Below are positions 464 to 60,079 of a DNA stretch of 64,000 nucleotides, one piece after another. The stretch is from assembly GCA_964016885.1 (NCBI GenBank), contig OZ024752.1:39928001-39992000 (forward strand), written 5' to 3'. Positions within the stretch are counted from its first letter, which is position 1, and each line of letters opens with the position of its first letter. Under the pieces are notes generated by a model. It did no database searches and was not told the origin of the DNA. It saw only the letters and a program-made list of their open reading frames with translations. Source of the stretch: Eledone cirrhosa (taxonomy: Eukaryota). Both the position numbers and the translations under genes were made by a program.

Positions 464-649
464 ATTCGTCTGGCTGCCTATGATATAAGACGTCCGTCAC
501 AAAAGGGTTATGCGACCATCACAATAAGAGTGAACCGCAATCCTTCCGGTCCATCTTTTATAGCTCCTTCAAATCAAGTAATTGAAGTCCTTGACACCCA
601 CAACATCAACAGTCCTGTCACTCAAGTTATCGCTAGTGATGTTGATCAG
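464..649 (+). CDS. cadherin exon 1 (A type, 62 aa) [10 protein letters not shown]...RNPSGPSF...IASDVDQ
   Basis: tttatag|ATT ... CAG|gtaatg; 186 nt; cadherin motifs. Confidence 0.9.
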
Positions 650-2874: not shown

Positions 2875-2905
<31 letters not shown>

Positions 2906-2971
2906 TTCTCCCACTCTATATCCCCTACCCCACCTCTCTCTCTCTCTCTCTCTCCCACTATATATCCCCCA

Positions 2972-3012
<41 letters not shown>

Positions 3013-3189: not shown

Positions 3190-3226
<37 letters not shown>

Positions 3227-3707: not shown

Positions 3708-6700
3708 ACTCTATATCCCCCACCCCACATCTCTCTCTCTCTCTCTCTCTCTCCCACTCTATATCCCCTACCCCACCTCTCTCTCTCTCTTTCTCTCTCC
3801 CTCCATTAAATTTCCCCAATGTTTCGTTCATTTTTTTTTTTCTTTTTTGGCAATTTTAAATGTTTCACTGTTACACATCTTTCTCAATATTCCAGAAAAT
3901 CACATATTTTATGCAAGGGGACACTACTCTCAAAAGCTATTTCTTCATCAATCCACAAGATGGCGCTATATATTTGCGGAAGAACTTGGAAACGTCTCCT
4001 GTTAATATTTTCAACGTAAGAGTTTTTATATAACTTCTTTAACCTCTTAGCACTTAACCAGGCCATATCTGTGTATGTGTGTATGTATGTGTGTGTGTGT
4101 GTGAGTGAGTGTATGTGTGTATGTGTGAGTGTATGTGTGTGTGTGTGTGTGAGTATGTGTGTGTGAGTGTGGGACTGTGTGAGTGTATATGTGTGACAGT
4201 GTATGAATGTGTATGTGTGACTGTATGAGTGTGTGAGTGTATGTGTGTGACAGTGTATAAATGGGTGTGTGTTTGTGACAGTGTATGAGTGTGTGTGTGT
4301 GTGTGACAGTGTGTGTTGTGACAGTGTGCGTGTGTGACAGTGTGTGTGTGTGTGTGACTGTGTGTGGGTGTGTGGGTGGGTGGGTGTGTCGGTGTGTCGG
4401 TGGGTGGGTATGTGAGTGTGTGACTGTGTGTGTGTGTGTGTGTCGGTGTGTGTGTGTGGGTGGGTGAGTGGGTGTGTGTGTGTGACTGTGTGTGTGTGTC
4501 TGTGTGTGTGTGTCGGTGTGTGTGTGTGTGTGTGTGGGTGGGTGTGTGTGTGAGTGTGTGACTGTGTGTGAGTGTGTGCCTCCAAAGTTAGGAAAGAATT
4601 TAAACTTTTTAACTTACAATATAATTGTTTCTACTTTTGGCAAAAGGCCAGCAATTATCCCAGTGTATTACTGGTACTTTATTTTATCGACCCCCGTATG
4701 GATGAAAGGCAAAGTTAACCTCGGCGAGATTTGAACTCAGAATGGCAAGGGCCGTAACTCTATGCGTCAAAGCATGGCATCCGACCCTCTACCGATACTG
4801 CCAATCCACTACCCTTAACTTGCATTATAATAAATAATTGTTAGTCAACCTTGAGCTATATTAAAAGGTTAAGGTTATGAAATGAACCTTTTAAACATAT
4901 AACTGGAGGCACATGGCTTAGTGGTTAGAGCATTGGGCTTGCAATCGAAAGGTTATGAGTTCAATTCTCAGACCGGGTAATGTATTGTTTCCTTGAGCAA
5001 GACACTTTATTTCACATTGCTCCAGTTTACTCAGCTGTAGAAATGAGATGATAGGGACTGGAGTCCCTATCATTCCACTGCAAAGTGGTCGTGGAGGTGC
5101 CACGGCAAAAAAGCACCCAGCACTCACTGTAAATAAGGTTGGTGTTAGGAAGGGCATCCAGCTGTAGAAATCAAGCCAGAATCAGTTCCCGTCCCACCCT
5201 TGCAAGCAGAGAAAAAGCGGACGTAAAATGAAATGATGATGAATGACATGAACTATGCCTATGCACACTTCCTGTGCTGTTCCCTTGGGAAAAACATACA
5301 ACCAAGGACATTCAGAACACAAATAAAACATCATTTGAGTGAGAATTAGCTTTATTTGATCTCCTATATTTAAGGATACAAAGTGCTGCACATCTTTGAG
5401 GCATTAAATAAGTCCAAGGCAGAATTATTTTCTAAGAATGAAAAATATTAGTTCACCCAGTCCACACTGTAAATGTGGTTGATGTTAGGAAAGGCATCCA
5501 GCCATAGGAACTAAGCCAGAAACAGTTCTGTATGAGCAAAACATGGTCATCTGTTCTGGCTTGTCTCACATTGGGACAACTCGTCTAACCCATGCTAGCA
5601 TAGAAAAATGGACGTTAAATGATGATGATGATAATGGTGGTGTCTATTTACTCAAGATTTTTCTCACAATACCAAAGTTTAAACTCTATTCCATTGAAAC
5701 AATTGTTTACATTCATTATTTAGTGTTTAAAGGGCGGTGGATTGGCAGTATCGGTAGAGGGTCGGACGCCATGTTAGGGCGGTGGATTGGCAGTATCGGT
5801 AGAGGGTCGGACGCCATGTTAGGGCGGTGGATTGGCAGTATCGGTAGAGAGTCGGACGCCATGTTAGGGCGGTGGATTGGCAGTATCGGTAGAGGGTCGG
5901 ACGCCATGTTAGGGCGGTGGATTGGCAGTATCAGTAGAGGGTCAGACGCCATGTTAGGGCGGTGGATTGGCAGTATCGGTAGAGGGTCGGACGCCATGCT
6001 TTGCAGCACAGTTACGTCCCTTTACGATCTGAGTTCAAATCCCGCCGAGGTTAACTTTGCCTTTCATCTTTACGGGGTTGATAAAATAAAATACCAGTAT
6101 TGCACTGGGGTTATTGCTGGCCTTGTGCCAAAAAGTAAAAACAATTATTTAGTGTTTAAATAATTGTTTCCACTTTTGGCACAAGGCCAGCAATTACTCC
6201 AGTGCAATAAAATACCAGTAATGCACTGGGGTAATTGCTGGCCTTGTGCCAAAAGTAGAAAGAATTATTTAGTGTTTAAATAATTGTTTCCACTTTTGGC
6301 ACAAGGCCAGCAATTACCCCAGTGCAATAAAATACCAGTAATGCACTGGGGTAATTGCTGGCCTTGTGCCAAAAGTAGAAACAATTATTTAAACACTATA
6401 TCACTATCACCATCATCATCATTTAACGCCTGTTTTTCCATGATTCCATAGGTTGGCCAGGTCCTTCTCAGTACAGCATCTTTCCACTTGTTCCTTTGTC
6501 AATATAACTTTGATAACTTTGATAGGTTTCGGCCAGTATTGGCCCAGGCCATGTCTAACTTAATACCACCACCTGGCAAAGTCTTTCAAATCAGGATTTG
6601 GGCACCATAGCCCACTCAAATAGAGAGTTATTGTTTACAGAGGCATATCCAGGTGTAGGGGGTTTATCCGGAATTTCTTGAAGGAATTTGTCCAAAGACT

Positions 6701-9700
6701 TCTTGAACTTGATGGGGTCTGTTTAGATATTTTTTTTAAAAAAGAAGAGAAAATGGATTTGTTATTCTTATAATATTTCTATTTTATTCTTCTTCTTTTC
6801 TATCATTTTTATCAAGCAATACCTATCTTATAATATACTCTAATATCTCACATGTGTTTTTTTTTTTTGTTTTTATTGTAGGCAAATATAACTGCCATGG
6901 ATAATGGCCAGCCACCGAAATCAAGCATATTAAAATTGCAATTCAATGTCAAAAAATCAATAAAGCCAGTCTTTCAACAAAAGACATACAATGTTACCGT
7001 AAGAGAAACTGAGTCTGTAAACAGATTTGTTATTTCTGTGGATGCTGATTCAACAAATACAGTATGTATTATAGAAAAATTCTCTATTGTTTGAAAAAAA
7101 AAATGACTTAACCCTTTCATGACTGCCTTTCTAATGAAATTCACCCTATTTTAATTAATCAATGAAGAACTTTGAGGGATTTACTAAAATTATTAATTAT
7201 TTCATTACAAAGACTTAATGAATTTAAGACTTAATATAAGGTTCTTGTATAAAATTATGTTGGAAGATTTTAATATAAATTGGAAACCTTTAAAATTGGG
7301 AACTTTATTTTATAGAACCAGAGCTGGTTTTGCCCAGGCTGGTAACACTGTTAAAGAAAAGAATAAGATTGAATGGAGATATGAATTTTAGTATCTTGAT
7401 GTAAGGTTCTTATATAAAATTATGTTAGAAGATTTGAATTTAAATTGGAAACCTTTAAAATGGATGGTTTTATTTCATAGAACCAGAGTCAGTTTTGACT
7501 GGGTTGGTAACTAAATGGTTAGTCATCTATTAGACCGAATAATGGTTGCTTAGTAGTCAGTGCTGGGTTTTCTTTAAATATGCATCTTTTCTTATTATTC
7601 TAAAGATGCTTATCCAAAAGGGGGATGAATGGAACGTTTTATTTCAGAATACTCAAATATATTCCTAGGATAAAATTATATAAAAATAATAAAAAATTTA
7701 ATATTTAGTCAAACATACATAAAAAGAAAGCAGTGTTGGAAAGAACTATAAATGCCATAAATGAGAGGAAAATGAGGGAAAATGCAATGGCTATTAGACA
7801 ACAGAAGAAAGAAAGTGAAAGGGAAAAGATGGTGACAGATTGGTTAGAGTGACATTTTGACTGCACCTCGCAGACAAAATGGCCAAGGTATTTCTGTAGA
7901 CACCACTGCAACAACCATCCCACCTCATGGGGATCCTTCCTCAGATGGGCTGCTGTCATTCTGATTTTATGGAGGGGGTCAGCTCTACGTCGTACAAGGA
8001 TGCCTGAGGTCTTGACAGCAACTGGTGCATTCTGATTTCTATCCTCACATTATAGATATCTCTCCCCTTCTTTATTGGTATCATCACTTATCAAGATTGT
8101 ATTTCCTACTGAAATAATAGGTCTCTATTATTACACTGGTCTGAGTTCAAATCCCGCCGAGGTTGACTTTGCCTTTCATCCTTACGGGGTCGATAAAATA
8201 AAGTACCAGTAATGCACTGGAATAATTGCTGCCTTTGTGCCAAAAGTAGAAACAATTATTCCACTGAAGATGTAGAGCGTCAGATACCATGCTTTGCAGC
8301 ATAGAGTTACGCCCCTTTACATTCGTGATTCAAATCCTGCCAAAGTTAACTTTGCCTTTCATCCTTACAGGGTCAATAAAATAAAGTACCAGTAATGCAC
8401 TTGGCTTGTACCAAAGTAGAAATAATTATTACCCTTCAGTATAGAAATCAGTAGAGCAATGTACAATAAGAGGAGAATGGAAAGAGGTAACAAACCCTCA
8501 AAGACAATAAAAAACAAAGACAAAAAGGATATTAACCCTTTAGCATTTACATTACTCTATATTTACTATTGTATTTTCATGGTAAAGGCTTTATCTCACA
8601 TAATTATCTCACAAAATTATCTCACATAGTATTGAATCTATGAGATTTTGATATTATTTATTTTGAGAACAATATCTTAAAGTCTGTATAAGTGGCCAGT
8701 TATGGTTGGTTTGAACAGAAAGAGGTGAAAGAATTCTGGCTGGATATGGCCAGTTTAAATGCTAAAGGGTTAATGATACAAAACTAAAAAGTGCGTGAAA
8801 TATTTTTAAAAGACCCTCTATCATAAACTTCTTTTCAGAGTGTTTCATCTAATTTATTTTCTCTTTTTTTTATTTTATTTTAAGTTGAATCTTGCATATA
8901 AAGTCATTGGAGAAGGATCTGCTCCAAGCTTTTTCAGAGTTGATAACTCTGGTAAAATTTACGTCAATTATAACCTCAAAACTGGACAAGAGATGCAATA
9001 TACTGTAAGTAATTGTAATCAAATTTTAAATATAGGATTTAACGAAATATTTACATACCTATGAGTTATTGTTTCCAAATGTTTTATAGTTAATGTGATT
9101 GTGTCATAGTGCTGTTCTGTACTTTTCAAGAATATCTTGTTTATGCAGTTTTATGTGGTACAGGTTAAAAGATAACAACAGTTAAACTTCCTGCTATATA
9201 GATCAGTGTGATTCATTAAAGGATTAAGTTTTAAATTAAATTCTTATGATTATATATTACTTTGAGTGGTATTGAAATAAATGAAGGCTTTAAATCTTTG
9301 TACTGGGCCATGGACCGGTAGTTGGGGGCCACTGTTCTAGTGTATGTGACTGTTTTATGTGTGCCTTATTTTTAAATATTTATGTTTTAGCTGATTGTTG
9401 AAGCTTACAAGCCAACCTATCCTTCACACAAAGACACCACAATTGTTTACATCAAGATGTTGAGGAATCTCAATACTCCAACGTTTAATCAACCCAATTA
9501 TAGTTTCCAGATCAACACTCAATCACAACTAGGAACAAACGTTGGAAATATTCAGGCAACGGATAATGACAATGTAAGTAATTAAACCTTTTGCTGTAAA
9601 AAATATAAGATAGAAAAGTAATTTTTTGTAATGAAAAAATATTTTTTCTTTGACAGAAAGTCTCTCATATGTTTATTATATATAAACATATAGTATATAT

Positions 9701-10766
9701 GGTTTTATATATATATACACCTCTATTATGCTTTTAGCAGAGTCCCTTCAGTTGGAAACATTTGGATCTGATGTCATAGCTTCTTTCCTCTTTCATCAAC
9801 TTTGTAGGCCTTGAAAAGGGTTAGATGTACTACACCAATCCTCAAGCCAACCTTCTCTGACTAAGCTAAAAAATTTCTTTCTAAAAGCATTTACTTATTT
9901 AATTTATGTGGAGGCTTTTCTTGTATAATCCTTTCATTTTATTTTTATTCTTATTTTATGTAATTTTATGACTTATTCATGCTAACCCTTACCTGTGGTC
10001 ATGAATCAGGGGTAATGACAGAAATAATATGATAGCAAATACAAATGGCTGAAAATGAGGTTCCTCCAAAGGGTCTTTGGAGTAACATTACTCGACAGAG
10101 TGTGTAGCTTGGAGATCCGAGAGTTATTCAAGGTAGAGCCACTACTTTTCTGAATTGAGATATCATAGCTCCGATACTATGAACATGTGGTTTGAATGTC
10201 TAAGGAAAGAATTGCTTGACAGATTTTATGGGTAAAACAAATCAGCAGGACACCTGGAGGTAGACCTTGAGCAAGATGGTTGAATAACATCCATGAGCTG
10301 AGCTAGTGTGGCTTGGAGATTCAGCCAGATCAGTTGGAGATGGTTACTTCTGACAGGACCCACTGGAAGGAGAGTTTGAGGACTCTGTCCCCATGACTCT
10401 CACAGGAATAAGTGGGCGAGGAAGAAGAAGAAGAAATTATTATTGCATGGATCATGAATCTATAGTTCTTATTTGCCTAAATTATGTTGTTTCCCAATCC
10501 TTAATTAATCAGATTATATTCTGGGTGAATTTCTTGGTAAGCTTATGTTATACTCTCATTTCTTAATATTCCAATATCTTCAACTTTCAGGATAAACTAA
10601 CTTACTCCATCGAACAAACCAGTGAATGCCAGAAGTATTTCTTCATAAAGCCAAATACAGGGGAGATAATTGTACAAGGAGTATTACCATCGACAAATAA
10701 AACCTTTGATGTAAGTACAAATATCATCAGATTTTGATTACCTAAATGTTGCATAAATTTGATAAG

Positions 10767-45800: not shown

Positions 45801-48800
45801 TGGTGTCACAACAAAAAGCACCCAGTCTACACTGTAAAATGGTCCTGTTGGTGTCACAACAAAAAGCACCCAGTCTACACTGTAAAATGGTCCTGTTGGT
45901 GTCACAACAAAAAGCACCCAGTCTACACTGTAAAATAGTCCTGTTGGTGTCACAACAAAAAGCACCCAGTCCACACTGTAAAATGGTCCTGTTGGTGTCA
46001 CAACATAAAGCACCCAGTCTACACTGTAAAATGGTCCTGTTGGTGTCACAACAAAAAGCACCCAGTCCACACTGTAAAATGATCCTGTTGGTGTCACAAC
46101 AAAAAGCACCCAGTCTACACTGTAAAATGGTCCTGTTGGTGTCACAACAAAAAGCACCCAGTCTACACTGTAAAATAGTCCTGTTGGTGTCACAACAAAA
46201 AGCACCCAGCCCACACTGTAAAATAGTCCTGTTGGTGTCACAACAAAAAGCACCCAGTCTACATTGTAAAATGGTCATGTTGGTGTCACAACAAAAAGCA
46301 CCCAGTCTACACTGTAAAATAGTCCTGCTGGTGTCACAAAAAGCACCCAGTCTACACTGTAAAATGGTCCTGTTGGTGTCACAACAAAAAGCACCCAGTC
46401 TACACTGTAAAATGGTCCTGTTGGTGTCACAACAAAAAGCACCCAGTCTACACTGTAAAATGGTCCTGTTGGTGTCACAACAAAAAGCACCCAGTCTACA
46501 CTGTAAAATAGTCCTGTTGGTGTCACAACAAAAAGCATCCAGCCCACACTGTAAAATAGTCCTGTTGGTGTCACAACAAAAAGCACCCAGTCTACACTGT
46601 AAAATAGTCCTGTTGGTGTCACAACAAAAAGCATCCAGCCCACACTGTAAAGTGGTCGTGTAGGGGTCATGACAAAAAGCACTCACCCCACAATGTAAAG
46701 TGGTCATGTAGGTATCAATATAAAAAGCACCCAGCCCACACTGTAAAGTGGTCATGTAGGTATCATGATAAAAAGCACCCAGTACTCACTGTGAATGAGT
46801 TTGGTGTTAGGAAGGGCATCCAGCTGTAGAAACCAAGTCAAAATCAGTTCTGTACGAACAAGACATGGTCAGCTGACCTACCATTGCCCACAACAGGACA
46901 ACACATCTAACCTATACCAGCGTAGAAAAATGGACGTAAAACGATGATGATGATGATATAAATTGGAAGATTCATTTACATTAAAATCTCAACATTTAAT
47001 TCCTAAACATTATTGTTCTTGGTGTTAGTACATCATAAAGCCACATTCTATTTTCTATAATGTAGAAAATGATAGTGGTAAGGAACACTCAGGAGAGCTG
47101 GACAGCAAAAGGTCTTCAGAGAAGAACCACCCCAACCCTCAACCAAGTGTTTCGACCCTTAACTTCTTACACTCTAAGAGGGCCAGGCTGCATCCACATC
47201 ATGACCCCTGAATGCTCCTCTGTTGACATTTAGCCATTCAGAAATCAGAGACTTGTTGATTATTTAAACAATATGGAGATTTTGTTGACAGGATTTTACT
47301 GGAACTCCTCTCCATTGCCTCTGCTTTCAAACTTATATTTGACCCTTTAGCATTTACATTACTCTATATATACTATTGTATTTTTGTAGTAAAGGCTTTA
47401 TCTTACATCATATCTCACATAACATTTACATTACTCTATATATACTATTGTATTTTTGTAGTAAAGGCTTTATCTTACATCATATCTCACATAACATTTA
47501 CATTACTCTATATATACTATTGTATTTTTGTAGTAAAGGCTTTATCTTACATCATATCTCACAAAACATTTACATTACTCTATATATACTATTGTATTTT
47601 TGTAGTAAAGGCTTTATCTTACATCATATCTCACAAAACATTTACATTACTCTATATATACTATTGTATTTTTGTAGTAAAGGCTTTATCTTACATCATA
47701 TCTCACATGACATTTACATTACTCTATATATACTATCGTATTTTTGTAGTAAAGACTTTATCTTACATAATTATCTCACATAATATCAAATCTACAAATT
47801 TTGATATTATTTATTTTGAGAATAATACCTTAACATCAGTATAAGCGGCCAGTTACAGCTGGTTTGAACAGATAGAGGTGAGTGAATTCTGGCCAGATAT
47901 GGCCGGTTTAAATACTAAAGGGTTAAACACTTTCTTGAATTGGAAAATAACATTGGTAGTCATAAAACAATGTAAAATGGACAGTAAAATTTAGTTTAGA
48001 TGAAGGTAATAAAAAGGTTTTTGTTACCTGGTATCTATGATTATTATCTTTTTATTCTTCATCCTAATATTTAGGGACTTAAAAATCCTTTCTATTTTGC
48101 TTTGTCTTAGCCTTCTTAAACTTTTAGCATTTAAACCAGCCATATCTGGTCAGAACTCTCTCACGCCTTTCAATTCAAACTGGCCATAACCAGCCTCTCA
48201 TACCGATGTATTGTTCTCAATATAAATAATATCAAAATCTCTTAGATTTGATATTATGTGAGATAATTATGTGAGATAAAACCTTTACCATGAAAATACA
48301 ATAGTAAATATAAAGTAATGTAAATGCTATGTGAGATAAAACCTTTACCATGAAAATACAATAGTAAATATAGAGTAATGTAAATGCTATGTGAGATAAA
48401 ACCTTTACCATGAAAATACAATAGTAAATATAAAGTAATGTAAATGCTATGTGAGATAAAACCTTTACCATGAAAATACAATAGTAAATATAGAGTAATG
48501 AAATGCTAAAGGGTTAAACCATATCACTTTCTACATTATATGCTATACACAATGCTTCTAGCAAACTATAACATTCTATTTTCTATTTCTTTATATATAT
48601 TTTTTTTTAGATCAATGTTGCAGCATCTGATTCAGGTACGATCAGGCGCACGGCCTCAGCAAGAGTAACTGTCAATATTAAACACAACAATAAACCATAC
48701 TTTGATAGAAGTAGTTATCAAGTATCCGTAGATGAGTCTATAGCAGTCAATAGCACTGTGTACCAGGTTTTAGCTAAAGATCCAACACAAGCTTCGGTGA

Positions 48801-52693: not shown

Positions 52694-55600
52694 AGGCACA
52701 TGGCTTAGAGGTTAGAGCATTGGCCTTGCAATCGAAAGGTTGTGAGTTCAATTCTCAGACCTGGTGATGTTTTGTTTCCTTGAGCAAGGCACTTTATTTC
52801 ACATTGCTCCAGTTTACTCAGCTGTAGAAATGAGATGATAGGGACTGGGGTCCATATCATTCCACTGCAAAGTGGTCGTGGAGGTGCACCCAGCACTCAC
52901 TGTAAATGAGGTTGGTGTTAGGAAGGGCATCCAGCTGTAGAAATCAAGCCAGAATCAGTTCCCGTCCCACCCTTGCAAGCAGGGAAAAGCGGACGTAAAA
53001 TGAAATGATGAATGATATATATATATATATATAATATATATATATACAAATTCCGACCTCACACACTTACACCTCTCCAAGACAATGTCACTGGACCGAG
53101 ACCTTTGGCGGTACTCAGTAATAGAGAAGACCCGCCTTACCTAAATACAAAGTAAAACCTACTACAGTCAGTAGGCATCTCTAACAAAACACACCCCCGT
53201 CCCACCACCCCCACCCCATCCACACCGCCCCTTTCAATGTAAAGTTATGTTGGTGTCACAACATCCAGGCCGAAACAAATGAGATTGTGTAGGTGTCACG
53301 ACAAAAAAACACACAGTCCACGCTGTAATGTGGCCGTGTAGGCAACACGGTAAAAACCTCCCAGCCCCACACTGTAAATGTGGTTGGTGTTAAGAAGGGC
53401 ATCCAACTGTAGAAAACCCGCCAGACAGTCCACGCTGTAATGTGGCCATGTAGGCAACACGGTAAAAACCTCCCAGCCCCACACTGTAAATGTGGTTGGT
53501 GTTAGGAAGGGCATCCAGCTGTAGAAAACCCGCCAGACAGTCCACGCTGTAATGTGGCCATGTAGGCAACACGGTAAAAACCTCCCAGCCCCACACTGTA
53601 AATGTGGTTGGTGTTAGGAAAGGCATCCAGCTGTAGAAAACCCGCCAGACAGTCCACGCTGTAATGTGGCCATGTAGGCAACACGGTAAAAACCTCCCAG
53701 CCCCACACTGTAAATGTGGTTGGTGTTAGGAAGGGCATCCAACTGTAGAAAACCTGCCAGACAGTCCACGCTGTAATGTGGCCATGTAGGCAACACGGTA
53801 AAAACCTCCCAGCCCCACACTGTAAATGTGGTTGGTGTTAGGAAGGGCATCCAGCTGTAGAAAACCCACCAGACAGTCCTATGCGAGCAAGACAACCACT
53901 CTTGCCTCAAGTGGGAAAACTCCCGTCCAAACCCATGCTAACGTGGAACACGGACGTTAAACGATGATGATGTTGATGATGATGATGACATAGTGAGGGA
54001 TGTAGGAGGAAATAAATGCAATATCCAGTTCTATAAATATGTTTGTACAAATATATAATTATCAATTTCTTTTCACAGGGACAGTTGCTGTATGAATTAA
54101 AAAATAGCGTGAAGTTGTTTTACGTGACTCTTAATGGAGAGATAAAGGTCAAAATATTCCTTAAGAATGTCACTGTAACTACTGTTAATGTAAGTTAATT
54201 TTACTTGTTATACTTTTATACTGAAAAGGAACCCTTCCAACCACCCACTCTTCAAGCAACTGTTTCAGAAGTTAAAAGTTGAAACACTTCCTTAATGATG
54301 GGGGCAGGGTGATTCTAGGGGAAAAAAAGATTTGTCCATGTAAGCAATATATTCATGAAAAATAATTTTGATTTAGTTTAGAGTTTGCAAAACCCAAATA
54401 GGTTATTTAATATTCAACAAGTAAGATTTCTTTTTAAAATAGATTTTTAAAACATATTCAGCTACAGCTAATAAGTATAATTTATATTCAACTAGCCGAA
54501 TTACCCGCGCTTTGCTGCGTTTCACACATATTTTTTTGTAAGAAAATGATGATTGATTTTAAATCAGTGATATAATTTATGGAGAAAAAATAAAGGGAAA
54601 ATGTTAAAAAAGTAGAGTCATTAACTAATAATTTTTGTCATAATTCTAGTGATGTTTTGCCATAGATAAAATGTCTAAATTAGCCAAATTTTACTATAAA
54701 AGAGAGGTGTTTTTTTTTTTGTTGATTTACATTTAATTAATAGAAAAAACCCATGATAATAGAGGTTCAAATACTCAAGTTATGGGCTTCCAAAATTTTC
54801 ACTATAGGGGGTTTAACCCCCATTAGGGTGTCTTAACATTATTGAAATTTGCTGAAATTTTGTGAATAGACATCATATTTCGTCATTTACCTATGGTTTA
54901 AATTTCATATAAATCAAAGGGAAAAAGTTTCACCAGGGGTTTGTGCCCCCAGGGAACCCTTTGATTAAAATGAAATATACTTATCCAAGTACCCTGGGCA
55001 ATGTAGTTTCAGAATATATATGGTTATGAGGGTCTATCTCCAAAACCATAGGAGGAGTTTGTGAACAAACAAACAAACAGACAGACAGGAACTACAGCTT
55101 TATATATATAGATATAGACAAGCTTTCTTCCATTGTCTAGTAGTCCTTGCTCTTCCCCACTTTTCCTTTCATTTATACTTTCTTTTTCTGTATGTTTAAC
55201 CAATTTTGAAGCCAATAGAATTTTTATTAGTTATATATTAAATAACCTTACAAATGGGAGTGAAAATATACAAAGCATATAAATAAATTTACAGTAGAAT
55301 AACATAACAATTATGTTTTAAATATATACATAAATAACATTACAAATGCTTAAATAACATTATAAATTGCTCACGATTCTTTCAGAAAGATATATTCCTT
55401 CGGGAAATCTTCTTAGAATTATCTCATCACAGACAACCTTCCAATTGAACTAAAGAAACATATGCATTCCAGATGTTTGTATATCTGATATGACAGTAAA
55501 TTCGATGTATTTTTGAAGTATTTTGAAGTATGTCAATGAAGTTTGTTGGTTGTCTTCCATAGTTAATCTGTTCATGTATAGACTGCCATACCATATTTAC

Positions 55601-58600
55601 TTCCATACCATTAGATTTGATGATATTTCTTTAAGATGTCTACCAGTTTCAATCTTTGCTCAGCCATTATTTTGATTAATTTTGGCAAGCTGTCATAAGG
55701 CAGTTATAAAATCTTGGCAGTGTACTTTAAAAGCTACCCTTTCATCAGTGCCATTTCTTTCGTATCCATCATGTTATGTATTTTTACATATCTATACAAA
55801 CTAAATTAAAATTCTGTATGTTAACCCTTTAGTATATAAACGGGCCATATCTAGCCAAAATTCTCTCACCTCTTTCTGTTCAAACTGGCCATAACTGGTT
55901 GCTCATACTGATGTTAAGGTATTGTTCTCAAAATAGATAATATCAAAATCTCATAGATTTGATATTATGTGAGATAATTATGTGAGGTAAAGCCTTTACC
56001 ATGAAAATATAATAATAAATATAAAATAATGTAAATATTATGTGAGACAATTATGTGAGATAATTATGTGAGATAATTATTTAAGGTAAAGGCTTTACCA
56101 TGAAAATATAATAGTAAATATAGAGTAATGTAAATGTTAAAGGGTTAAGTGTAATGTTTTGCTGACATGTATGTAATACTTTTTAATTCTTTGCAATTAT
56201 TTCTCTTTTTCCTTTATCAAACAGATTAAAGTAAGGGCATATCGGAAAAATGATGTTTCAAGTTTTGCAGAAACTACAGTTGTTGTCAACATAATCCGTA
56301 GTAGCACTAAACCACAATTTAAGAACAGTGCTGATAATATAACAATTAATGATGACACAGCAATTGGAACTATTATATACGATGCTAATGCTACTGATCC
56401 AGACACTGTAAGTATTATTCATATTTATTATACTTGAAGGAAGGGCATTGGATTGGCAGTATTGGTATAGAGTCAGAGATCATGCCTTGCAGCATAGGGT
56501 TACGGCCCTTTACAGTCTGAGTTCAAATCCCGCCGAGGTTAACTTTGCCTTTCATCCTTAAGGGGTCGATAAAATAAAACACCAGTAATGTACTGAGATA
56601 ATTGCTGCCCTTGTACGAAAAGTAGAAAAAATTCTTATTATTATTATTATTTTATTATTATTATTATTATTCCAGTTCGGGATAAACTCTACAGGCATGG
56701 AGGTGCCTTCAGCCGGGCATGTCCGAGATGCGCGCAGGGTGACGAAACCGTCCTGCACGCACTCATCCAGTGTCCGAAAATTGCTGACTTGTGGGTTTAT
56801 GTCGAACACCTGCTGTCGCGTGTAGAACGGATCCGGCTATCATCTGAGTCCATCATGAGGATTGCCCCGCCCTCTTCCTTTAGCCGGGAAGGGCAGGCAG
56901 TTTTTATCTGTCTGGTGGCCATGGCGAAAGAGATAGTATGGTGGACACGTTTGAAAGGGCTGAAGATGAGCACTTACCTCTTCGGTGATGCCCTGATTGA
57001 CTTTTTCAAATTTCATTTGAAAAGGAAAATCAGAGTAGAGAGGGAAGTGTTCTCTTCCCAGCATTTTGTTGAAAGATGGGTGAGAGAAGCAAGAATGGCC
57101 CGAGTGAATGGACCTACTCTGAGTACGTATCTGTAAATTAAAGGTGGAAAACTGGGAGAGGGCACTTGCCTTGGTGGTCAGGGTCACTGTGGCCTTTTAC
57201 TGGGCTTTCTCCACAAATGTCCCTCCGAAGTCTGCCCCCTATTGGGGAATTTTTCATTGTTATTTTTTTGTTACATCCTCTGTTTTTGTTTTTTACACGC
57301 AGAAATGCCCATTTGTACCGTCCTGTATTGTCCTGCACTGTCCTTAATGTCTACTTTATGTAAACCCTTGTGGTTAATAAAGAAATCATTATTATTATTA
57401 TTATTATGTCCCTTTACGGACTGAGGTCAAATCCCGCCGAGGTTAACTTTGCCTTTCATCCTTACGGGGTCGATAAAATAAAGTACCAGTAATACACCGG
57501 GATAATTGCTGGCCTTGTGTCAAAAGTAGAAACAATTATTTTATTATTATTATTAATATTTGTTGTTATTATTATAAGATGGAGGTAACTACAGTGGAGT
57601 AAGTTAGTATGAGTTATCGAAAGTTCTATATAATAATTTTTACATCGGTGTGTAGTTAAAGAACCCTTCTGACAAAGGAGGTGGGTTTTTTTAACTGTAT
57701 CTCGCGCCATTGAGGGCTAAATTTGCTTTTATTTACAATCATAACCCCAATATTTTGTTTTAAAAAAACATGGCGGACAAAAAAAATTGTTCACAGGGAG
57801 CAACAGTGAGTTGTTCGGAGGGTGGAACAGCCAGTTCCACCCAATCACAAGGCAAAGTAAAAAACAAGAGCAGTAGCGACAGCGACACTGGTAGTGACAA
57901 CAGCAGCAACAGCAGCCACTGGAACTGTAGTAGCAACAGTGGAAATTATAACGTAAAGTTTCCTGCGTTACAAAAATCAAACACCACCACGACCACCCCA
58001 ATAACAGCAACAGCCATAAAGAACCCAAAGAACAACAACTATAACAGCAGCAACACAGAAGAAAAAAACACAAACAAAAACACCAACGACGGCAACAAGG
58101 ACAAAATTAGTGACGAGTCAACAATAATCAAAACAAACACATCATTCGCTAAAGCGACAAACAATTTTGAACAAGTACACATCACTAACAAAGAGATAAA
58201 ACAAGCAAAGGTCTTGGTTAAAAAGACTAGACATAGGGTAAGTCTCACCCGCCCAGCTGAGATAATAAGAAACAAGCTTTTGTGTTCGGTCAGTTATCGC
58301 ACGATGGGATCAAAATCGCGATGAGTTGAACGGGCAACGGAGTCACAGGTCCAAAGAGCTATGGGCACCGTCTGGGCACAGAAAACATATGGCACTGTGG
58401 GTGTGCTTTTCGCTACACCAGAAGAAGCCAGAGCACACTTCATTGTGCCACTCCGCAGTACAAATCTTACTAATGCCTTTCATCTTTCTGGGGTTGATAA
58501 AATAAAGTACCAGTAATATACTTGAGATAAAATGATTGACTGACTCTTTCCTTTCTCCCTTGAAGAATATTAGTAGCCCCCATACCAATTGCTTATTTCT

Positions 58601-59833
58601 AAATATCTCATTTCTTTTCATTTCTATTGTAGGGTGAACATGGTCGACTAACATACAAGATTACTCAATATTCACCACAAATTGATCCAAACTATTTCTA
58701 TTTGAATCCTGGAACTGGTGCATTAACAGTTACAGCATTACTAAGCACCAACTCGATAATTTCAAACAAATATGTAGTAAGTAACATTAAATTTTTTGTC
58801 ATTCAGGAAACAGTAATATGAAAAGATATGGCTGAATAATGAACTGAATGCTTTACAGCAGTGAAGAACGTTTCCCACCAAAACAAATGGCCCACAAAAT
58901 TCATGAGGAGAATTTCAGTGATCACTAAATATATAAATTTACTTCTTATCACGGAGCAAATACAGAGGATATGTGATGGCTGGAGAGAAATGAGGCAAGC
59001 ATGCTTCGTTGTATGTGGAATGTAAATGTGCGTGAACGACCCAGCATGGATGTGTTGAGAGAGAAACTGTGTCTGAGAGGGACAGAATGTAGTGTGCAAG
59101 AGAGGAGACTGAGGTGGTATGGACATGTGATGTGTTGAGAGAGAAACTGTGTCTGAGAGGGACAGAATGTAGTGTGCGAGAGAGGAGACTGAGGTGGTAT
59201 GGACATGTGATGTGTTGAGAGAGAAACTGTGTCTGAGAGGGACAGAATGTAGTGTGCGAGAGAGGAGACTGAGGTGGTATGGACATGTGATGTGTTGAGA
59301 GAGAAACTGTGTCTGAGAGGGACAGAATGTAGTGTGCGAGAGAGGAGACTGAGGTGGTATGGAGATGTGATGTGTTGAGAGAGAAACTGTGTCTGAGAGG
59401 GACAGAATGTAGTGTGCGAGAGAGGAGACTGAGGTGGTATGGACATGTGATGTGTTGAGAGAGAAACTGTGTCTGAGAGGGACAGAATGTAGTGTGCAAG
59501 AGAGGAGACTGAGGTGGTATGGACATGTGATGTGTTGAGAGAGAAACTGTGTCTGAGAGGGACAGAATGTAGTGTGCGAGAGAGGAGACTGAGGTGGTAT
59601 GGACATGTGATGCGCGTGGAGGATGACCGATGGGTGAAGAAGTGCCAGGAATTGCCAGTTGAAGGAAGACGTGGTAGAGGTAGACCGCGAAAAACATTGG
59701 GCGGAGGTGGTGAGAACAGACCTCAGATCGCTGAAGCTCACAGTGGAGATGACGAGGGACCGTGATGAGTGGAGAGATGCTGTGCTGAATAAGACCCATC
59801 CCACCCTTGCAAGCAGGGAAAAGCGGACGTAAA

Positions 59834-59865: not shown

Positions 59866-60079
59866 ATACATATATATATTCCTTTTTTTTTTACAGCTTG
59901 ATATCCAAGTAGAAGACAATGGCTATCCTAAGAACAAAGCTACTATGCAACTTACAATCAAAATTGTCAAACATTCATCAGCTCCAGTATTCCAGCGACG
60001 TTCGTATGAATTCAACATTAATGTTACAGCTTTAAAGAATGATGTTGTAGGCTATGTAAAGGCAACTGATAAAGATGGG
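464..60079 (+). CDS. Internal part of a giant atypical cadherin gene (25 exons, 1307 aa, ~12.5 EC repeats; Fat-like/lophotrochozoan long-cadherin type), incomplete at both ends
   Basis: 25 exons each bounded by polypyrimidine-AG and GT donors, all multiples of 3, joining into one open frame with repeated cadherin motifs (PxF, AxDxD, YxI, FxIxxxxGxI, AxDxGxP). Confidence 0.93.
812..1110 (+). mobile_element. 3' fragment of R4/Dong-like (restriction-like endonuclease) non-LTR retrotransposon in (TAA)n
   Basis: encodes [13 protein letters not shown]...[10 protein letters not shown]; same as 28247-28570 and 29500-29782; flanked by (TAA)n. Confidence 0.75.
2695..3800. repeat. (CT)n-based compound minisatellite with CCCACTCTATATCCCCCACCCCACA spacer
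   Basis: direct reading. Confidence 0.9.
3896..4015 (+). CDS. cadherin exon 2 (B type, 40 aa) KITYFMQG...[17 protein letters not shown]...
   Basis: ttccag|AAA ... AAC|gtaaga; 120 nt; missed by ORF track. Confidence 0.9.
4068..4580. repeat. degenerate (TG)n microsatellite
   Basis: direct reading. Confidence 0.9.
4904..5243 (+). mobile_element. tRNA-derived SINE family A (CORE-like centre, RTE-type tail ending in (ATG)n); other copies 13852-14199 -, 18822-19203, 19820-20172, 35668-36011, 44008-44403 -, 52691-53015, 60109-60723
   Basis: A box TGGCTTAGTGG, B box GAGTTCAATTC, CCTTGAGCAAGACACTT core, tail GGACGTAAAATGATGATG. Confidence 0.85.
5731..6145 (+). mobile_element. tRNA-derived SINE family B with 6 tandem 45-bp head copies; many further copies in both orientations (e.g. 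2420-2610 -, 12517-12697 -, 28016-28203, 39354-39537, 40144-40335, 44680-44865 -, 50433-50625)
   Basis: GGGCGGTGGATTGGCAGTATCGG...GAGTTCAAATCCC...GCCTTTCATCCTTACGGGGTCGATAAAATAAAGTACCAG...AGTAGAAACAATTATT. Confidence 0.85.
6520..6722 (-). mobile_element. CR1-group LINE 3' fragment
   Basis: minus strand encodes [25 protein letters not shown]...NNSL. Confidence 0.5.
6882..7061 (+). CDS. cadherin exon 3 (A, 60 aa) [12 protein letters not shown]...KPVFQQKTY...DADSTNT
   Basis: ttgtag|GCA ... ACA|gtatgt; 180 nt. Confidence 0.9.
8532..8773. mobile_element. piggyBac-like MITE (other copies 20623-20844, 40685-41257, 47339-47926, 48116-48517, 55821-56148)
   Basis: TTAA-CCCTTTAGCATTTA ... TAAATGCTAAAGGG-TTAA terminal inverted repeats with TTAA ends. 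Confidence 0.75.
8885..9004 (+). CDS. cadherin exon 4 (B, 40 aa) LNLAYKVIG...[12 protein letters not shown]...QYT
   Basis: tttaag|TTG ... ACT|gtaagt; 120 nt. Confidence 0.88.
9391..9573 (+). CDS. cadherin exon 5 (A, 61 aa) LIVEAYK...RNLNTPTF...QATDNDN
   Basis: ttttag|CTG ... AAT|gtaagt; 183 nt. Confidence 0.92.
10591..10710 (+). CDS. cadherin exon 6 (B, 40 aa) [27 protein letters not shown]...
   Basis: tttcag|GAT ... GAT|gtaagt; 120 nt. Confidence 0.92.
11590..11922. repeat. (TA)n/(TACA)/(TATG) microsatellite
   Basis: direct reading; source of spurious IYIY ORFs. Confidence 0.95.
12463..12713 (+). ncRNA. Type I hammerhead ribozyme motif split by a SINE insertion
   Basis: tattttgt-CTGAAGA(12471)-stem II-GAAA(12503)-TATATA-TA, then SINE, then atgaaata (stem I partner); 11-bp duplication ATATATATAAT at 12506 and 12698. 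Confidence 0.65.
13451..13498 (+). ncRNA. Minimal type I hammerhead ribozyme (Penelope-like)
   Basis: GCC-CTGATGA-GTCCT(TAAT)AGGAC-GAAAC-ATT-GT-T-GGC followed by AATAAA; in a ~140-bp unique segment between (TA)n tracts. Confidence 0.8.
14711..14899 (+). CDS. cadherin exon 7 (A, 63 aa) [11 protein letters not shown]...SPSF...AATPQSQN
   Basis: ttgcag|TGT ... AAT|gtaagt; 189 nt. Confidence 0.9.
15487..15941. mobile_element. pogo/Tigger-like MITE with nested SINE (15530-15743)
   Basis: TACTGTATATACTCGAATATAA ... TTATATTTGAGTATATAAAGTA imperfect TIRs with TA ends. Confidence 0.5.
16022..16710. mobile_element. pogo/Tigger-like MITE pieces (TACCGTATTTCCCAGCG / CGCTGGGAAATACAGTA) with a CR1-like fragment (16330-16475)
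   Basis: matching TIRs at 16022, ~16495-16510 and ~16694-16710. Confidence 0.5.
16855..16983 (+). CDS. cadherin exon 8 (B, 43 aa) DVIRYRVVG...[13 protein letters not shown]...SYT
   Basis: tttcag|GAT ... ACA|gtgagt; 129 nt. Confidence 0.92.
17075..17842. repeat. AT-rich ~31-bp minisatellite (ATATCATTTGAGATTTATTATATTATATAAT), ~25 copies
   Basis: direct reading; fills most of the intron between exons 8 and 9. Confidence 0.92.
17887..18069 (+). CDS. cadherin exon 9 (A, 61 aa) LKIEAYV...RNANGPIF...VTDADS
   Basis: ctatag|TTA ... AGC|gtaagt; 183 nt. Confidence 0.92.
20341..20469 (+). CDS. cadherin exon 10 (B, 43 aa) KFITCKITG...[13 protein letters not shown]...RYT
   Basis: ttccag|AAA ... ACA|gtaagt; 129 nt. 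Confidence 0.9.
21908..22508. repeat. 63-bp tandem array (~9.5 copies) from SINE B central region
   Basis: unit CATCCTTACGGGGGTCGATAAAATAAAGCACCAGTAATGTACTGGGGTCGCTATACTAGATAT. Confidence 0.9.
22612..23560 (+). repeat. ~260-bp tandem array of whole SINE B copies (~4)
   Basis: direct reading. Confidence 0.85.
23606..23788 (+). CDS. cadherin exon 11 (A, 61 aa) [11 protein letters not shown]...IPENKG...AINNNG
   Basis: ttttag|ATC ... GGT|gtaagt; 183 nt. Confidence 0.9.
24239..26845 (+). mobile_element. RTE-clade LINE, 5'-truncated, APE endonuclease + reverse transcriptase, frameshift near 25930
   Basis: AYAPQ..GDFNGH..QIDFIL (APE); [32 protein letters not shown] (RT); [10 protein letters not shown]-terminus. 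Confidence 0.95.
27623..27754 (+). CDS. cadherin exon 12 (B, 44 aa) GQIEYQIL...[13 protein letters not shown]...MYT
   Basis: tttcag|GGT ... ACG|gtaagc; 132 nt. Confidence 0.92.
28247..28570 (+). mobile_element. R4/Dong-like 3' fragment in (TAA)n
   Basis: homologous to 812-1110 and 29500-29782. Confidence 0.75.
28660..29790 (+). mobile_element. R4/Dong-like non-LTR retrotransposon 3' portion (CCHC finger + restriction-like endonuclease), degenerate
   Basis: AAQEQAL..CRIC..E...[19 protein letters not shown]; ends in (TAA)n. Confidence 0.8.
29962..30144 (+). CDS. cadherin exon 13 (A, 61 aa) IRISAFD...[10 protein letters not shown]...QATDADN
   Basis: tttcag|ATT ... AAT|gtaaga; 183 nt. Confidence 0.92.
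30866..31145 (+). mobile_element. RTE 3' fragment (second family; also 40838-41170 and 58950-59862)
   Basis: [21 protein letters not shown]...GRGRPRKTW; (ATG)n tail. Confidence 0.85.
31993..32115 (+). CDS. cadherin exon 14 (B, 41 aa) DPLVYSF...[12 protein letters not shown]...SFN
   Basis: atgtag|GAC ... AAC|gtaagg; 123 nt. Confidence 0.88.
32832..33830 (-). repeat. 74-bp tandem array (~13 copies) of a tRNA-like SINE head
   Basis: minus unit TGTGGYCTAGTGGTAAGGGTGTTGGACATGATTATAATGTTGTGGGTTCGATTCCTGGACTGAGGAGTATATTG with A and B boxes. Confidence 0.88.
33899..34084 (+). CDS. cadherin exon 15 (A, 62 aa) [12 protein letters not shown]...QPPVF...ATDPSNQ
   Basis: tttcag|TTC ... CAG|gtaaga; 186 nt; an in-frame alternative acceptor exists 6 nt downstream. 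Confidence 0.9.
34170..35310. repeat. (CA)n-based compound minisatellite with ATGCACATGTGG spacer
   Basis: direct reading. Confidence 0.92.
36038..36166 (+). CDS. cadherin exon 16 (B, 43 aa) DQVEYNISG...[13 protein letters not shown]...
   Basis: ttgcag|GAT ... GTG|gtaagt; 129 nt. Confidence 0.9.
36210..37305 (-). mobile_element. CR1-like LINE 3' end containing a 61-bp tandem array (~13 copies, 36385-37178)
   Basis: minus strand unit encodes [21 protein letters not shown], the CR1-type C-terminal motif. Confidence 0.75.
38423..38611 (+). CDS. cadherin exon 17 (A, 63 aa) VLIKAYL...KNINKPVF...NATDADNT
   Basis: tttcag|GTC ... ACG|gtaact; 189 nt. Confidence 0.92.
39591..39725 (+). CDS. cadherin exon 18 (B, 45 aa) [10 protein letters not shown]...[17 protein letters not shown]...
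   Basis: ccacag|TTT ... AAA|gtaagt; 135 nt. Confidence 0.93.
41796..41978 (+). CDS. cadherin exon 19 (A, 61 aa) [11 protein letters not shown]...RNKNAPQF...IATDSDT
   Basis: caccag|TTT ... ACT|gtaagt; 183 nt. Confidence 0.93.
42282..43745. repeat. long degenerate (CA)n/(CAGA) microsatellite
   Basis: direct reading. Confidence 0.95.
43815..43946 (+). CDS. cadherin exon 20 (B, 44 aa) [10 protein letters not shown]...[13 protein letters not shown]...KYT
   Basis: ttctag|GGT ... ACG|gtaaat; 132 nt. Confidence 0.92.
45099..46650. repeat. 48-bp tandem array (~32 copies) inside an RTE-tail/SINE element (44990-46955)
   Basis: unit CACCCAGTCTACACTGTAAAATGGTCCTGTTGGTGTCACAACAAAAAG. Confidence 0.93.
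47352..47780. repeat. 72-bp tandem array (~6 copies) inside piggyBac-like MITE
   Basis: 24-aa periodicity in ORF 47376..47783. Confidence 0.88.
48268..48500. repeat. 60-bp tandem array (~4 copies) inside piggyBac-like MITE
   Basis: direct reading. Confidence 0.88.
48611..48796 (+). CDS. cadherin exon 21 (A, 62 aa) INVAASDSG...NNKPYF...VDE...AKDPTQAS
   Basis: ttttag|ATC ... TCG|gtgagt; 186 nt. Confidence 0.92.
49249..49309 (+). ncRNA. Type I hammerhead ribozyme
   Basis: ACTGC-CTGAAGA-GGTCACAGCCA(AAGA)TGGCTGTCACT-GAAA-TATATA-T-A-GCAGT-AATAAA. Confidence 0.85.
49519..49581 (-). ncRNA. Type I hammerhead ribozyme
   Basis: minus strand TATTTTGT-CTGATGA-AAACGTAC..GTACCTTT-GAAA-TAAGTA-T-A-ATAAAATA. 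Confidence 0.75.
49758..49804 (-). ncRNA. Type I hammerhead ribozyme (U4C variant core)
   Basis: minus strand TGCT-CCGATGA-TTCCAAAC(GAAA)GTTTGGAA-GAAAC-GATT-GT-C-AGCA-ATAAA. Confidence 0.8.
50841..50910 (+). ncRNA. Type I hammerhead ribozyme, probably inactivated (G12A)
   Basis: TATATTTTAT-CTGATGA-GGACGTACTG..CAGTACCTCC-AAAA-TATATA-T-A-ATAAAATATA; 10-bp stem I; same family as 49519-49581. Confidence 0.75.
51037..51398. repeat. ~104-bp inverted repeat with ~154-bp spacer that carries a hammerhead
   Basis: arms 51037-51140 and 51295-51398. Confidence 0.92.
51196..51240 (-). ncRNA. Type I hammerhead ribozyme
   Basis: minus strand AGTCA-CTGAAGA-G-GTCACA(GAGTG)TGTGAC-GAAAG-AA-CT-A-TGACT. Confidence 0.75.
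51641..51742 (+). ncRNA. Type I hammerhead ribozyme with a very long (~62 nt) stem II
   Basis: GACATAT-CCGAGGA-[TCTTGCGATC...AGGTTCGATC..GATCGTACCT...GGTCGCCAGA]-GAAAC-GATT-GT-A-ATATGTC-TAATAAA; perfect 7-bp stem I. Confidence 0.75.
51793..51904. repeat. perfect 54-bp-arm palindrome (loop CTAT) of a hammerhead 3' half
   Basis: arms 51793-51846 / 51851-51904. Confidence 0.92.
52154..52492. repeat. ~114-bp inverted repeat ending in CTGATGA-AGGA next to (TA)n
   Basis: arms 52154-52267 / 52379-52492. Confidence 0.9.
52527..52651. repeat. perfect 59-bp-arm palindrome (loop TTAGCCG) of a hammerhead 3' half, between (TA)n tracts
   Basis: arms 52527-52585 / 52593-52651; related to 51793-51904. Confidence 0.92.
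53046..53988 (+). mobile_element. RTE 3' end and 3' UTR with a 112-bp tandem array (~5 copies)
   Basis: inverted homolog of 61597-62200; (GAT)n tail. Confidence 0.8.
54079..54189 (+). CDS. cadherin exon 22 (B, 37 aa) GQLLYEL...[12 protein letters not shown]...
   Basis: tcacag|GGA ... AAT|gtaagt; 111 nt. Confidence 0.88.
54492..55112 (-). mobile_element. Non-autonomous Helitron-like element
   Basis: minus strand starts TCTATATATATAAAG with a (CTGT)/(TTGT) tract and ends in GC-rich CGCAGCAAAGCGCGGG then CTAG, between A and T. Confidence 0.65.
56225..56407 (+). CDS. cadherin exon 23 (A, 61 aa) IKVRAYR...TKPQF...NATDPDT
   Basis: aaacag|ATT ... ACT|gtaagt; 183 nt. Confidence 0.92.
56670..57395 (+). 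mobile_element. Tx1/L1-like LINE 3' end (ORF2 CCHC finger + 3' UTR) within (TTA)n
   Basis: [25 protein letters not shown] followed by ORF 56789..57136; flanked by (TTA)n. Confidence 0.8.
57580..58470 (+). mobile_element. Possible 5' end/ORF1 remnant of a non-LTR retrotransposon
   Basis: low-complexity S/N/T ORF 57770..58324 with SFAKA motif, followed out of frame by VLFATPEEA. Confidence 0.35.
58633..58776 (+). CDS. cadherin exon 24 (B, 48 aa) [10 protein letters not shown]...[13 protein letters not shown]...KYV
   Basis: ttgtag|GGT ... GTA|gtaagt; 144 nt. Confidence 0.9.
59049..59608. repeat. 80-bp tandem array (7 copies) inside RTE 3' fragment
   Basis: direct reading. Confidence 0.92.
59897..60079 (+). 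CDS. cadherin exon 25 (A, 61 aa) [11 protein letters not shown]...APVF...KATDKDG
   Basis: ttacag|CTT ... GGG|gtaagt; 183 nt. Confidence 0.93.

Follow-up and report, generated by a model that had tools for sequence, protein, structure and literature searches.

The window, by which we mean the whole 64,000-nt stretch analysed here (G000:C12:39,928,001-39,992,000 of the 3.0-Gb genome), probably encodes cadherin repeats (ECs) 68-81 of a single-pass protein of about 85 ECs that has Cad99C/PCDH15-type ends and a middle amplified from EC9 and an X-Y pair of repeats. The product would be a segmented filament in which ordered, calcium-capped X-to-Y joints alternate with looser Y-to-X joints. Positions are those of the window unless a contig is given.

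Exons were found by six-frame translation and exon-seeded searches. Twenty-five of them lie on the plus strand, all open, in phase 0 and bounded by AG/GT, and they sum to 1307 aa (Table 1), with splicing predicted from splice signals and homology; two sequencing runs compared with the gene behaved as DNA and yielded no evidence of splicing. The series alternates between two exon types. An A exon spans a repeat boundary, running from strands F-G of an EC through the linker into strands A-B of the following EC as far as its DxD motif, and a B exon encodes strands C-D-E of a single EC. Because each exon holds only half a repeat, single Eledone exons score weakly as Pfam cadherins (one of three, E 0.02). 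A homologue search with a single exon gave no match among proteins of 108-2000 aa. Both Cys residues of the pair in EC71, which is split between exons 6 and 7, are conserved in all five relatives that align there.

Table 1. Predicted exons of the window, with the transmembrane (TM) exon downstream of it. Relatives are the collinear proteins described in the text.
Feature	Position	Strand	Content
Exon 1 (A)	464..649	+	F-G of EC68 (X, AYD); linker RNPSGP; A-B of EC69 (Y) ending in DxD
Exon 2 (B)	3896..4015	+	C-D-E of EC69 (Y)
Exon 3 (A)	6882..7061	+	EC69 FG Asp (DNG); linker without Asn; EC70 (X) DxD lost; DxD in 2/5 relatives
Exon 4 (B)	8885..9004	+	C-D-E of EC70 (X)
Exon 5 (A)	9391..9573	+	EC70 FG AYK; linker RNLNTP; EC71 (Y) DxD
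Exon 6 (B)	10591..10710	+	C-D-E of EC71 (Y); Cys, partner Cys at start of exon 7
Exon 7 (A)	14711..14899	+	EC71 FG Asp; EC72 (X) DxD lost, likewise in 5/5 relatives
Exon 8 (B)	16855..16983	+	C-D-E of EC72 (X; GxYPA loop)
Exon 9 (A)	17887..18069	+	EC72 FG AYV; linker RNANGP; EC73 (Y) DxD
Exon 10 (B)	20341..20469	+	C-D-E of EC73 (Y); Cys pair common to three gastropod proteins
Exon 11 (A)	23606..23788	+	EC73 FG Asp; EC74 (X) DxD replaced by NxN; DxD intact in 6/6 relatives
Exon 12 (B)	27623..27754	+	C-D-E of EC74 (X)
Exon 13 (A)	29962..30144	+	EC74 FG AFD (Asp kept); linker RSKGGP; EC75 (Y) DxD
Exon 14 (B)	31993..32115	+	C-D-E of EC75 (Y)
Exon 15 (A)	33899..34084	+	EC75 FG Asp; EC76 (X) DxD halved; intact in 2/6 relatives
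Exon 16 (B)	36038..36166	+	C-D-E of EC76 (X)
Exon 17 (A)	38423..38611	+	EC76 FG AYL; linker KNINKP; EC77 (Y) DxD
Exon 18 (B)	39591..39725	+	C-D-E of EC77
Exon 19 (A)	41796..41978	+	EC77 FG Asp; linker RNKNAP; EC78 DxD; second site-3 joint in succession
Exon 20 (B)	43815..43946	+	C-D-E of EC78
Exon 21 (A)	48611..48796	+	EC78 FG Asp; EC79 (X) DxD halved; incomplete in 6/6 relatives
Exon 22 (B)	54079..54189	+	C-D-E of EC79 (X)
Exon 23 (A)	56225..56407	+	EC79 FG AYR; linker RSSTKP; EC80 DxD
Exon 24 (B)	58633..58776	+	C-D-E of EC80
Exon 25 (A)	59897..60079	+	EC80 FG Asp; EC81 DxD; gene runs on beyond window
TM exon	C12:40,019,765-40,019,965		

The introns carry mobile and satellite DNA. A LINE-type element with endonuclease and reverse-transcriptase matches and two overlapping ORFs occupies 24006-26905 (+) in intron 11, a retrotransposon fragment with a zf-RVT match lies at 56597-57133 (+), and a further fragment at 62204-62779 (-), which has no Pfam match, was judged by eye. 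Micro- and minisatellite tracts are found at 2678-4630, 11464-12050, 42183-43878, 45043-46785 and 53259-53937, and long tracts of this kind give rise to spurious long ORFs in introns.

The original prediction was that the joints of the window alternate between a state with calcium site 3 only and a calcium-free state. Its underlying motif observations are borne out by the rebuilt exons. Neither DRE nor DxNDN occurs anywhere in the 1307 aa, and each of the seven A exons that end in DxD (exons 1, 5, 9, 13, 17, 19 and 23) is followed by an A exon with the FG-loop Asp (DNG, DNG, DNA, DTS, DQG, DSG and DNG). The (R/K)N linker said to be usual after these exons is present in five of the seven, exons 13 and 23 reading RS. 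Where DxD is lost or halved (exons 3, 7, 11, 15 and 21), the next A exon reads AYK, AYV, AFD, AYL and AYR, as predicted in all five cases; of these, the AFD of exon 13 keeps the FG Asp and misses only the Gly. The losses also differ in degree. Complete stripping is limited to exons 3 and 7; in exon 11 the motif has become NxN, and the first Asp survives in exons 15 and 21. Shifting the register of exon 3 would restore a DxD, but this was rejected because, counted from the A-strand Glu, Ser and Asn fall where the two Asp should be. Alternation itself is real within the window, where the state switches from one junction to the next in 10 of 11 cases (permutation p = 0.007), with a slip at exons 17/19. 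It does not extend to the gene as a rule, however; the window is the most alternating part, and 10 changes are reached in only 3 of 63 sliding windows of 12 junctions.

The genome was fetched for 400 kb upstream and 200 kb downstream of the window. The A/B exon series proves to be gapless: 148 exons and a terminal half exon, comprising 75 units of each type, encode 7,782 aa between about C12:39.665 and 40.000 Mb. Upstream of this array are exons for eight more ECs, most with DxNDN/DYE-type motifs, and downstream a further two ECs are followed by a region next to the membrane, a single TM exon and exons for the cytoplasmic part. The predicted gene thus has about 85 ECs (8 + 75 + 2) and more than 9,000 aa, with identified exons running from about G000:C12:39,592,000 to 40,032,000; the model lacks the signal peptide, part of the MAD exons and the last exon, none of which could be located. 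With each EC taken as about 4.5 nm long, such a protein would have a contour length of about 0.4 micrometre. The introns of the array are all in phase 0, two per repeat, so that duplication or skipping of any two neighbouring exons would preserve the reading frame. At about C12:39,719,200 an intron is absent, and A and B form one fused exon. At about G000:C12:39,696,700-39,697,300, inside the intron that follows a B exon, lie three partial tandem copies of that exon's end, which are the trace of a recent local duplication. The Eledone array is net basic (+1.1 per EC) and has 72 N-glycosylation sequons; Cad99C and three out of four relatives are, by contrast, acidic, at -2 to -5 per 104 aa.

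The ends of the gene identify its family. When the N-terminal exons were compared with a set of 24 selected proteins, the first nine ECs gave alignments some 900 aa long with bivalve relatives (E 1e-101 to 2e-91), with arthropod and annelid Cad99C (5e-82 to 7e-72) and with vertebrate PCDH15 (4e-48 and 3e-42), and scored far lower with CDH23 (7e-26) and Cad74A (3e-18). EC1-9 are collinear with Cad99C at about 30% identity over that length. As in PCDH15/Cad99C, the EC2-3 linker has a DxDD motif (DGDD) followed by a Cys pair, and the exon that carries it finds PCDH15 as its top PDB match (E 0.0075) and in five of seven matches overall. A full-length bivalve relative aligns collinearly with the PCDH15 EC1-7, EC4-7 and EC8-9 structures. 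From the exon translations, the EC5-6 joint lacks DxNDN, and the joint before the EC10 equivalent lacks both DxNDN and DxD; linkers 5/6 and 9/10 of Cad99C/PCDH15 are likewise described as being without the calcium consensus (PMC2171266). At the other end, a MAD+TM profile built from six relatives and a partial Eledone row matches Cad99C/PCDH15 with an hhalign probability of 99.7 (99.1 without the TM). The MAD12-like regions of the six relatives score E 1e-20 to 4e-13 by HMM; the incomplete Eledone row gives no score alone, but correspondence with the relatives is seen in its TM exon and in three MAD pieces. The Eledone TM exon is 81% identical to that of Patella and reaches only E 2.6 against PCDH15 by itself. 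When the MAD region of one relative was searched against the PDB as a single sequence, no cadherin was returned, unlike in the profile comparison, which did find Cad99C/PCDH15. T-x-L PDZ-type C-terminal ends are present in three of the six relatives whose C-termini were compared. With about 85 ECs as against 11 in canonical PCDH15/Cad99C, the gene is a derived giant variant of PCDH15/Cad99C and not a canonical member. A second Cad99C-like locus, at G000:C889:58,300-62,400 on the minus strand, holds an EC2-3 exon (55-60% identical) and an EC3 piece, and no array exons were found in 80 kb of that 82.7-kb contig.

Relatives of the array were sought with a profile of the 13 A exons of the window against 1.84 billion representatives, of which the best 150 matches were examined. 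Among these, 11 long proteins contain an array of the same kind, free of DxNDN and with RN linkers; they come from Haliotis (two), Patella (three), Plakobranchus, Bulinus, Potamilus, Lingula and Tubulanus, with one further protein. Eight of the 11 are labelled Fat-like, and in Mytilus and the annelid Lamellibrachia the array follows directly after EC9. The bivalve relative from Potamilus has only about 18 array repeats. No cephalopod protein occurs among the 24 proteins whose names were looked up. The database labels raise the question of whether the gene is itself a Fat or Fat-like cadherin, as the NCBI names of P0001, P0003, P0004, P0006, P0008, P0011, P0022 and P0092 ("protocadherin Fat 4-like") would have it. 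Fat cadherins carry EGF and laminin-G modules after their ECs and are defined by them. The three relatives scanned all have the cadherin fold (PF00028), and neither EGF nor laminin-G domains were found in any of them, nor are such domains evident in the C-terminal exons of Eledone. True Fat-type proteins among the best 150 matches carry many DxND and DRE motifs, which the array is without, and both ends of the gene match Cad99C/PCDH15. The Fat reading is thus largely refuted, and we regard it as highly improbable.

The source of the array within the ancestral protein was approached by scoring an array profile along eight references. The profile peaks on EC9 in five of them, at 73-81 bits versus at most 68 elsewhere in four arthropod-type proteins and at 69 versus at most 47 in amphioxus. 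In the three vertebrate PCDH15 references, EC8 ties with or beats EC9. An origin from EC10 was rejected, since EC10 scored lowest or near lowest, as was one from EC5-6, EC6 being second to EC9 in the arthropod references. On these results, EC9 and a two-repeat X-Y module were probably amplified in tandem to give the 75-repeat middle. EC9 binds calcium at its top but not at its bottom (PMC5120219; PMC2171266), and stacked copies of it would therefore form site-3-only joints by default.

The two-repeat unit is a property of the whole gene. Repeats of the same parity share 27.1% identity versus 24.6% for those of opposite parity, a difference that none of 20,000 permutations reaches, and the excess holds within both halves of the array and across them (also 0 of 20,000). 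The clearest mark of the two classes is the F-strand aromatic (AY/AF), which is present in 15 of 16 odd (X) and none of 15 even (Y) repeats over repeat index i = 37-67. This changes the meaning of the AY/AF motif, which had been read as a sign of calcium loss: it marks the X class and has no relation to DxD loss outside the window (p = 0.45). In the N-terminal half, the repeats i = 18-22 (about C12:39.762-39.780 Mb) carry the X/Y signature of the C-terminal half (AYD, DxD-L-K-G) and map one-to-one to Patella P0022, pointing to a putative ancient segmental duplication of this block.

The order of the repeats is itself conserved. Repeat-by-repeat mapping onto the Eledone array gives one clear diagonal in four gastropod proteins (mean Z 1.96-2.15 versus at most 1.0 at the next offset) and in the further, eleventh protein (1.69 versus 0.65). 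Collinearity is weaker in Lingula (1.27 versus 0.94), in Haliotis (1.24 versus 0.79 and 1.02 versus 0.94) and in Tubulanus (0.93 versus 0.79); Potamilus gives two diagonals and Bulinus none. Across three phyla, repeat order and class-specific residues are kept at 23-35% identity, and position marks such as the EC71 Cys pair and a phase slip at EC77-78 are common to Eledone and its relatives. In a FastTree analysis of 87 rows, made up of repeats i = 57-71 of the Eledone gene and of five of the 11 relatives, one branch with support 0.905 splits X from Y, with 83 of the 87 rows on the expected side and four misplaced. By this tree, the two-repeat unit is older than the split of mollusc, brachiopod and nemertean.

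Loss of site 3 follows these classes. In the array, no joint of 74 is canonical, calcium sites 1-2 are nowhere intact, and the linker consensus is R-N-x-N-x-P; the one DRE, in EC22, lies outside the window. Site 3 is complete (DxD and FG Asp) at 54 of the 74 joints, partial at 8, and without either Asp of DxD at 12. DxD is incomplete in 12 of 34 odd versus 3 of 33 even tops (p = 0.017), a ratio that is 4/11 versus 2/11 over i = 37-58 and 5/5 versus 0/4 over i = 59-67. In eight relatives over i = 37-71, where motif calls were automated and the proteins are not phylogenetically independent, 36 of 69 X tops have an intact DxD, 53 have the FG Asp and 56 the aromatic; for the 79 Y tops the counts are 68, 78 and 5, respectively. 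Loss is thus non-random in the relatives, as had been anticipated, although strict alternation is partly specific to the lineage. At the five "free" joints of the window, from exon 3 to exon 21, DxD is intact in 2/5, 0/5, 6/6, 2/6 and 0/6 relatives; the joint of exon 11 in particular, with DxD intact in all six relatives, is a lineage-specific loss, and the EC72 top (exon 7) is the best-conserved calcium-free joint. Site-3 loss is therefore largely confined to one joint class; of the putative hinges, two are ancient and at least one is recent.

DxD and the FG Asp covary in the window (7/0/1/4 for both, DxD only, FG Asp only and neither; p = 0.010), over the whole array (54/4/7/9, p = 5e-5) and at the X tops of the relatives, where the FG Asp is seldom missing unless DxD has gone first (34/2/19/14, p = 4e-4). 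The original prediction took this covariation across exons as a sign of selection for hinges, and that step fails. DxD and the FG Asp belong to the top of a single EC and bind the same ion (PMC5120219), so their covariation is expected, and the members of each class share descent.

To compare the two joint types, we counted their residues in the Eledone gene and eight relatives (86 X-to-Y and 81 Y-to-X joints). X-to-Y joints have the linker Arg in 86%, the linker Asn in 93%, DxD in 86%, the FG Asp in 99%, an acid at xE in 80% and an acid at the DRE Glu position in 67%, versus 56%, 16%, 49%, 73%, 74% and 16%, respectively, at Y-to-X joints. The X-to-Y linker is stereotyped (RN in 78%), and that of Y-to-X is variable in length and sequence (RN in 10%, mean 5.7 residues). 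The xE Glu co-occurs with the RN linker (p = 0.004 in Eledone, 8e-6 in relatives), an association confounded with class. X tops conserve a Tyr (73%), a Leu (51%) and a Gly (69%), and X bottoms keep a G..PA loop and acids.

With this chemistry, X-to-Y would likely be the ordered joint, with one calcium and a defined geometry. Its linker Arg may bridge the acids that remain of sites 1-2, or the joint may have a second, weak site; in either case the description "site 3 only" would understate it. Y-to-X would be the looser joint, its X top capped without calcium by the conserved Tyr and a Leu-x-Gly loop, and X tops stabilised in this way could have let site 3 decay there repeatedly. The di-repeat idea therefore stands on grounds different from those first proposed, and we hold the assignment of X-to-Y as ordered and Y-to-X as looser to be about evenly balanced.

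Published structures cut against this assignment. PCDH15 EC5-6 binds one calcium, at site 3, adopts three conformations and is flexible even at high calcium (PMC7547225), so site 3 alone gives no rigidity; calcium-free PCDH15 EC9-10 is a bent joint with a 389 Å2 interface (PMC5120219). By analogy with this pair, the mechanics could be reversed, with X-to-Y joints as flexible swivels and Y-to-X joints as fixed kinks on a hydrophobic interface for which calcium is dispensable, a reading to which the conserved Tyr, Leu and Gly of the X tops would also lend themselves. However, a fixed interface should conserve both of its faces, and it is the Y-to-X linker that is variable and the X-to-Y linker that is stereotyped, with the loop and acids kept at X bottoms; we consider the reversed arrangement unlikely. 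An AlphaFold model of a five-EC fragment from a collinear limpet protein (5-row alignment) has a mean pLDDT of 89.9, and its top Foldseek matches are all cadherins. Its domains are confident, but its pTM of 0.43 is too low for the rmsd values, about 8-11 Å to straight multi-EC structures and 37 Å to bent N-cadherin EC1-4, to count for or against either joint geometry.

The period of two could also be history only, the relic of a two-EC block duplication in a long spacer whose joints are all floppy, where loss at X tops is neutral and site 3 stabilises just the individual domain tops. That X and Y form clades is what such a history would give, as is the finding that loss positions differ between lineages, and the N-terminal half of the array has a period-2 sequence yet only 4 of 36 incomplete DxD motifs. 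Against this, repeat order and class-specific residues have persisted across the three phyla despite the low identity, and the tops of EC72 and EC79 are without complete DxD in 5/5 and 6/6 relatives, which suggests maintained hinges. A purely historical origin seems to us quite improbable.

A basic furin-type site is predicted in the F-G loop of the EC10 equivalent, the penultimate EC (G000:C12:40,005,373-40,005,516, 3' of the window). It also occurs in amphioxus PCDH15 and in five of the six relatives whose sequences include the C-terminus (the sixth shows a weaker KR instead), and is absent from the four arthropod-type Cad99C proteins checked. The predicted site could possibly serve as a point of shedding or force release. 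Cad99C acts on microvilli (PMC2171266), and by analogy the preferred model of ordered X-to-Y and looser Y-to-X joints would place the Eledone protein on apical microvilli as a tether of about 0.4 micrometre, possibly cut in its penultimate repeat. In its fullest form the model has a lophotrochozoan Cad99C/PCDH15 turned into a spring of that length by amplification of the repeat next to its elastic hinge into a di-repeat array with no canonical calcium joint, Arg in place of calcium at the ordered joints, calcium-free hinges kept across phyla and furin-type release or shedding in the penultimate repeat, in a mis-annotated family of Cambrian age that includes the octopus sucker cadherin; this whole chain we regard as speculative and on balance doubtful.

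Wang and Ragsdale in 2017 reportedly described an octopus "CDHX", or 77-EC sucker cadherin. As cited elsewhere, an octopus cadherin with 77 ECs is highly expressed in suckers (PMC6339937), and CDHX is called unique (PMC6110919); the passages on it in these two papers are silent on PCDH15 ancestry and calcium sites. By comparison of descriptions, the Eledone gene is probably CDHX or its orthologue, a giant octopus cadherin of similar repeat number (77 reported versus 85 counted here). In contrast to a unique gene, the Eledone array has collinear relatives in gastropods, a brachiopod and a nemertean, and shorter or partial arrays exist in bivalves and an annelid. An octopus "PCDH15" transcript has been assayed, its architecture not being given in the passages concerned (PMC7465212), and the part of PMC9068888 consulted adds nothing further on the giant octopus cadherin. 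We found no paper that ties a giant octopus or mollusc cadherin to PCDH15/Cad99C or describes the array, though Albertin 2015, Wang and Ragsdale 2017 or their supplements may do so.

Compared with Cad99C/PCDH15, the Eledone gene shares the collinear EC1-9, the EC2-3 DxDD motif and Cys pair, the non-canonical EC5-6, the calcium-free joint before the EC10 equivalent, EC11, a predicted MAD12-like domain and a predicted single TM; it differs in its 74 extra EC9-like repeats, which are without sites 1-2 and have a two-repeat period. Both joint chemistries have solved precedents in PCDH15, site-3-only in EC5-6 and calcium-free in EC9-10 (PMC7547225, PMC5120219), with which EC2-3 of Drosophila N-cadherin is grouped as an atypical linker; partial and complete calcium-free cadherin linkers are reviewed in PMC8325961. 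In PCDH15 and N-cadherin, however, these linkers are single exceptions among canonical joints, whereas the Eledone array has none that is canonical. The Fat and Dachsous cadherins are similar in their very long EC arrays and in some calcium-free linkers that permit bending (as cited in PMC8325961), but their joints are mostly of the canonical three-calcium type.

Judged from its exons and relatives, the gene would be a giant, EC9-amplified Cad99C/PCDH15 derivative common to lophotrochozoans, in which strict alternation of joints is a local feature. The giant octopus cadherin, and many lophotrochozoan gene models labelled "Fat4-like", would thereby gain an identity and an origin as PCDH15/Cad99C derivatives. 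The array would also supply dozens of natural variants of the two atypical joints that set tip-link elasticity, aligned one-to-one across phyla, so that the stiffness conferred by partial and calcium-free linkers could be probed with matched natural pairs such as the EC74 top with and without DxD. Finally, the protein is a candidate for forming long filaments on apical microvilli in the epithelia of molluscs, brachiopods, nemerteans and annelids.
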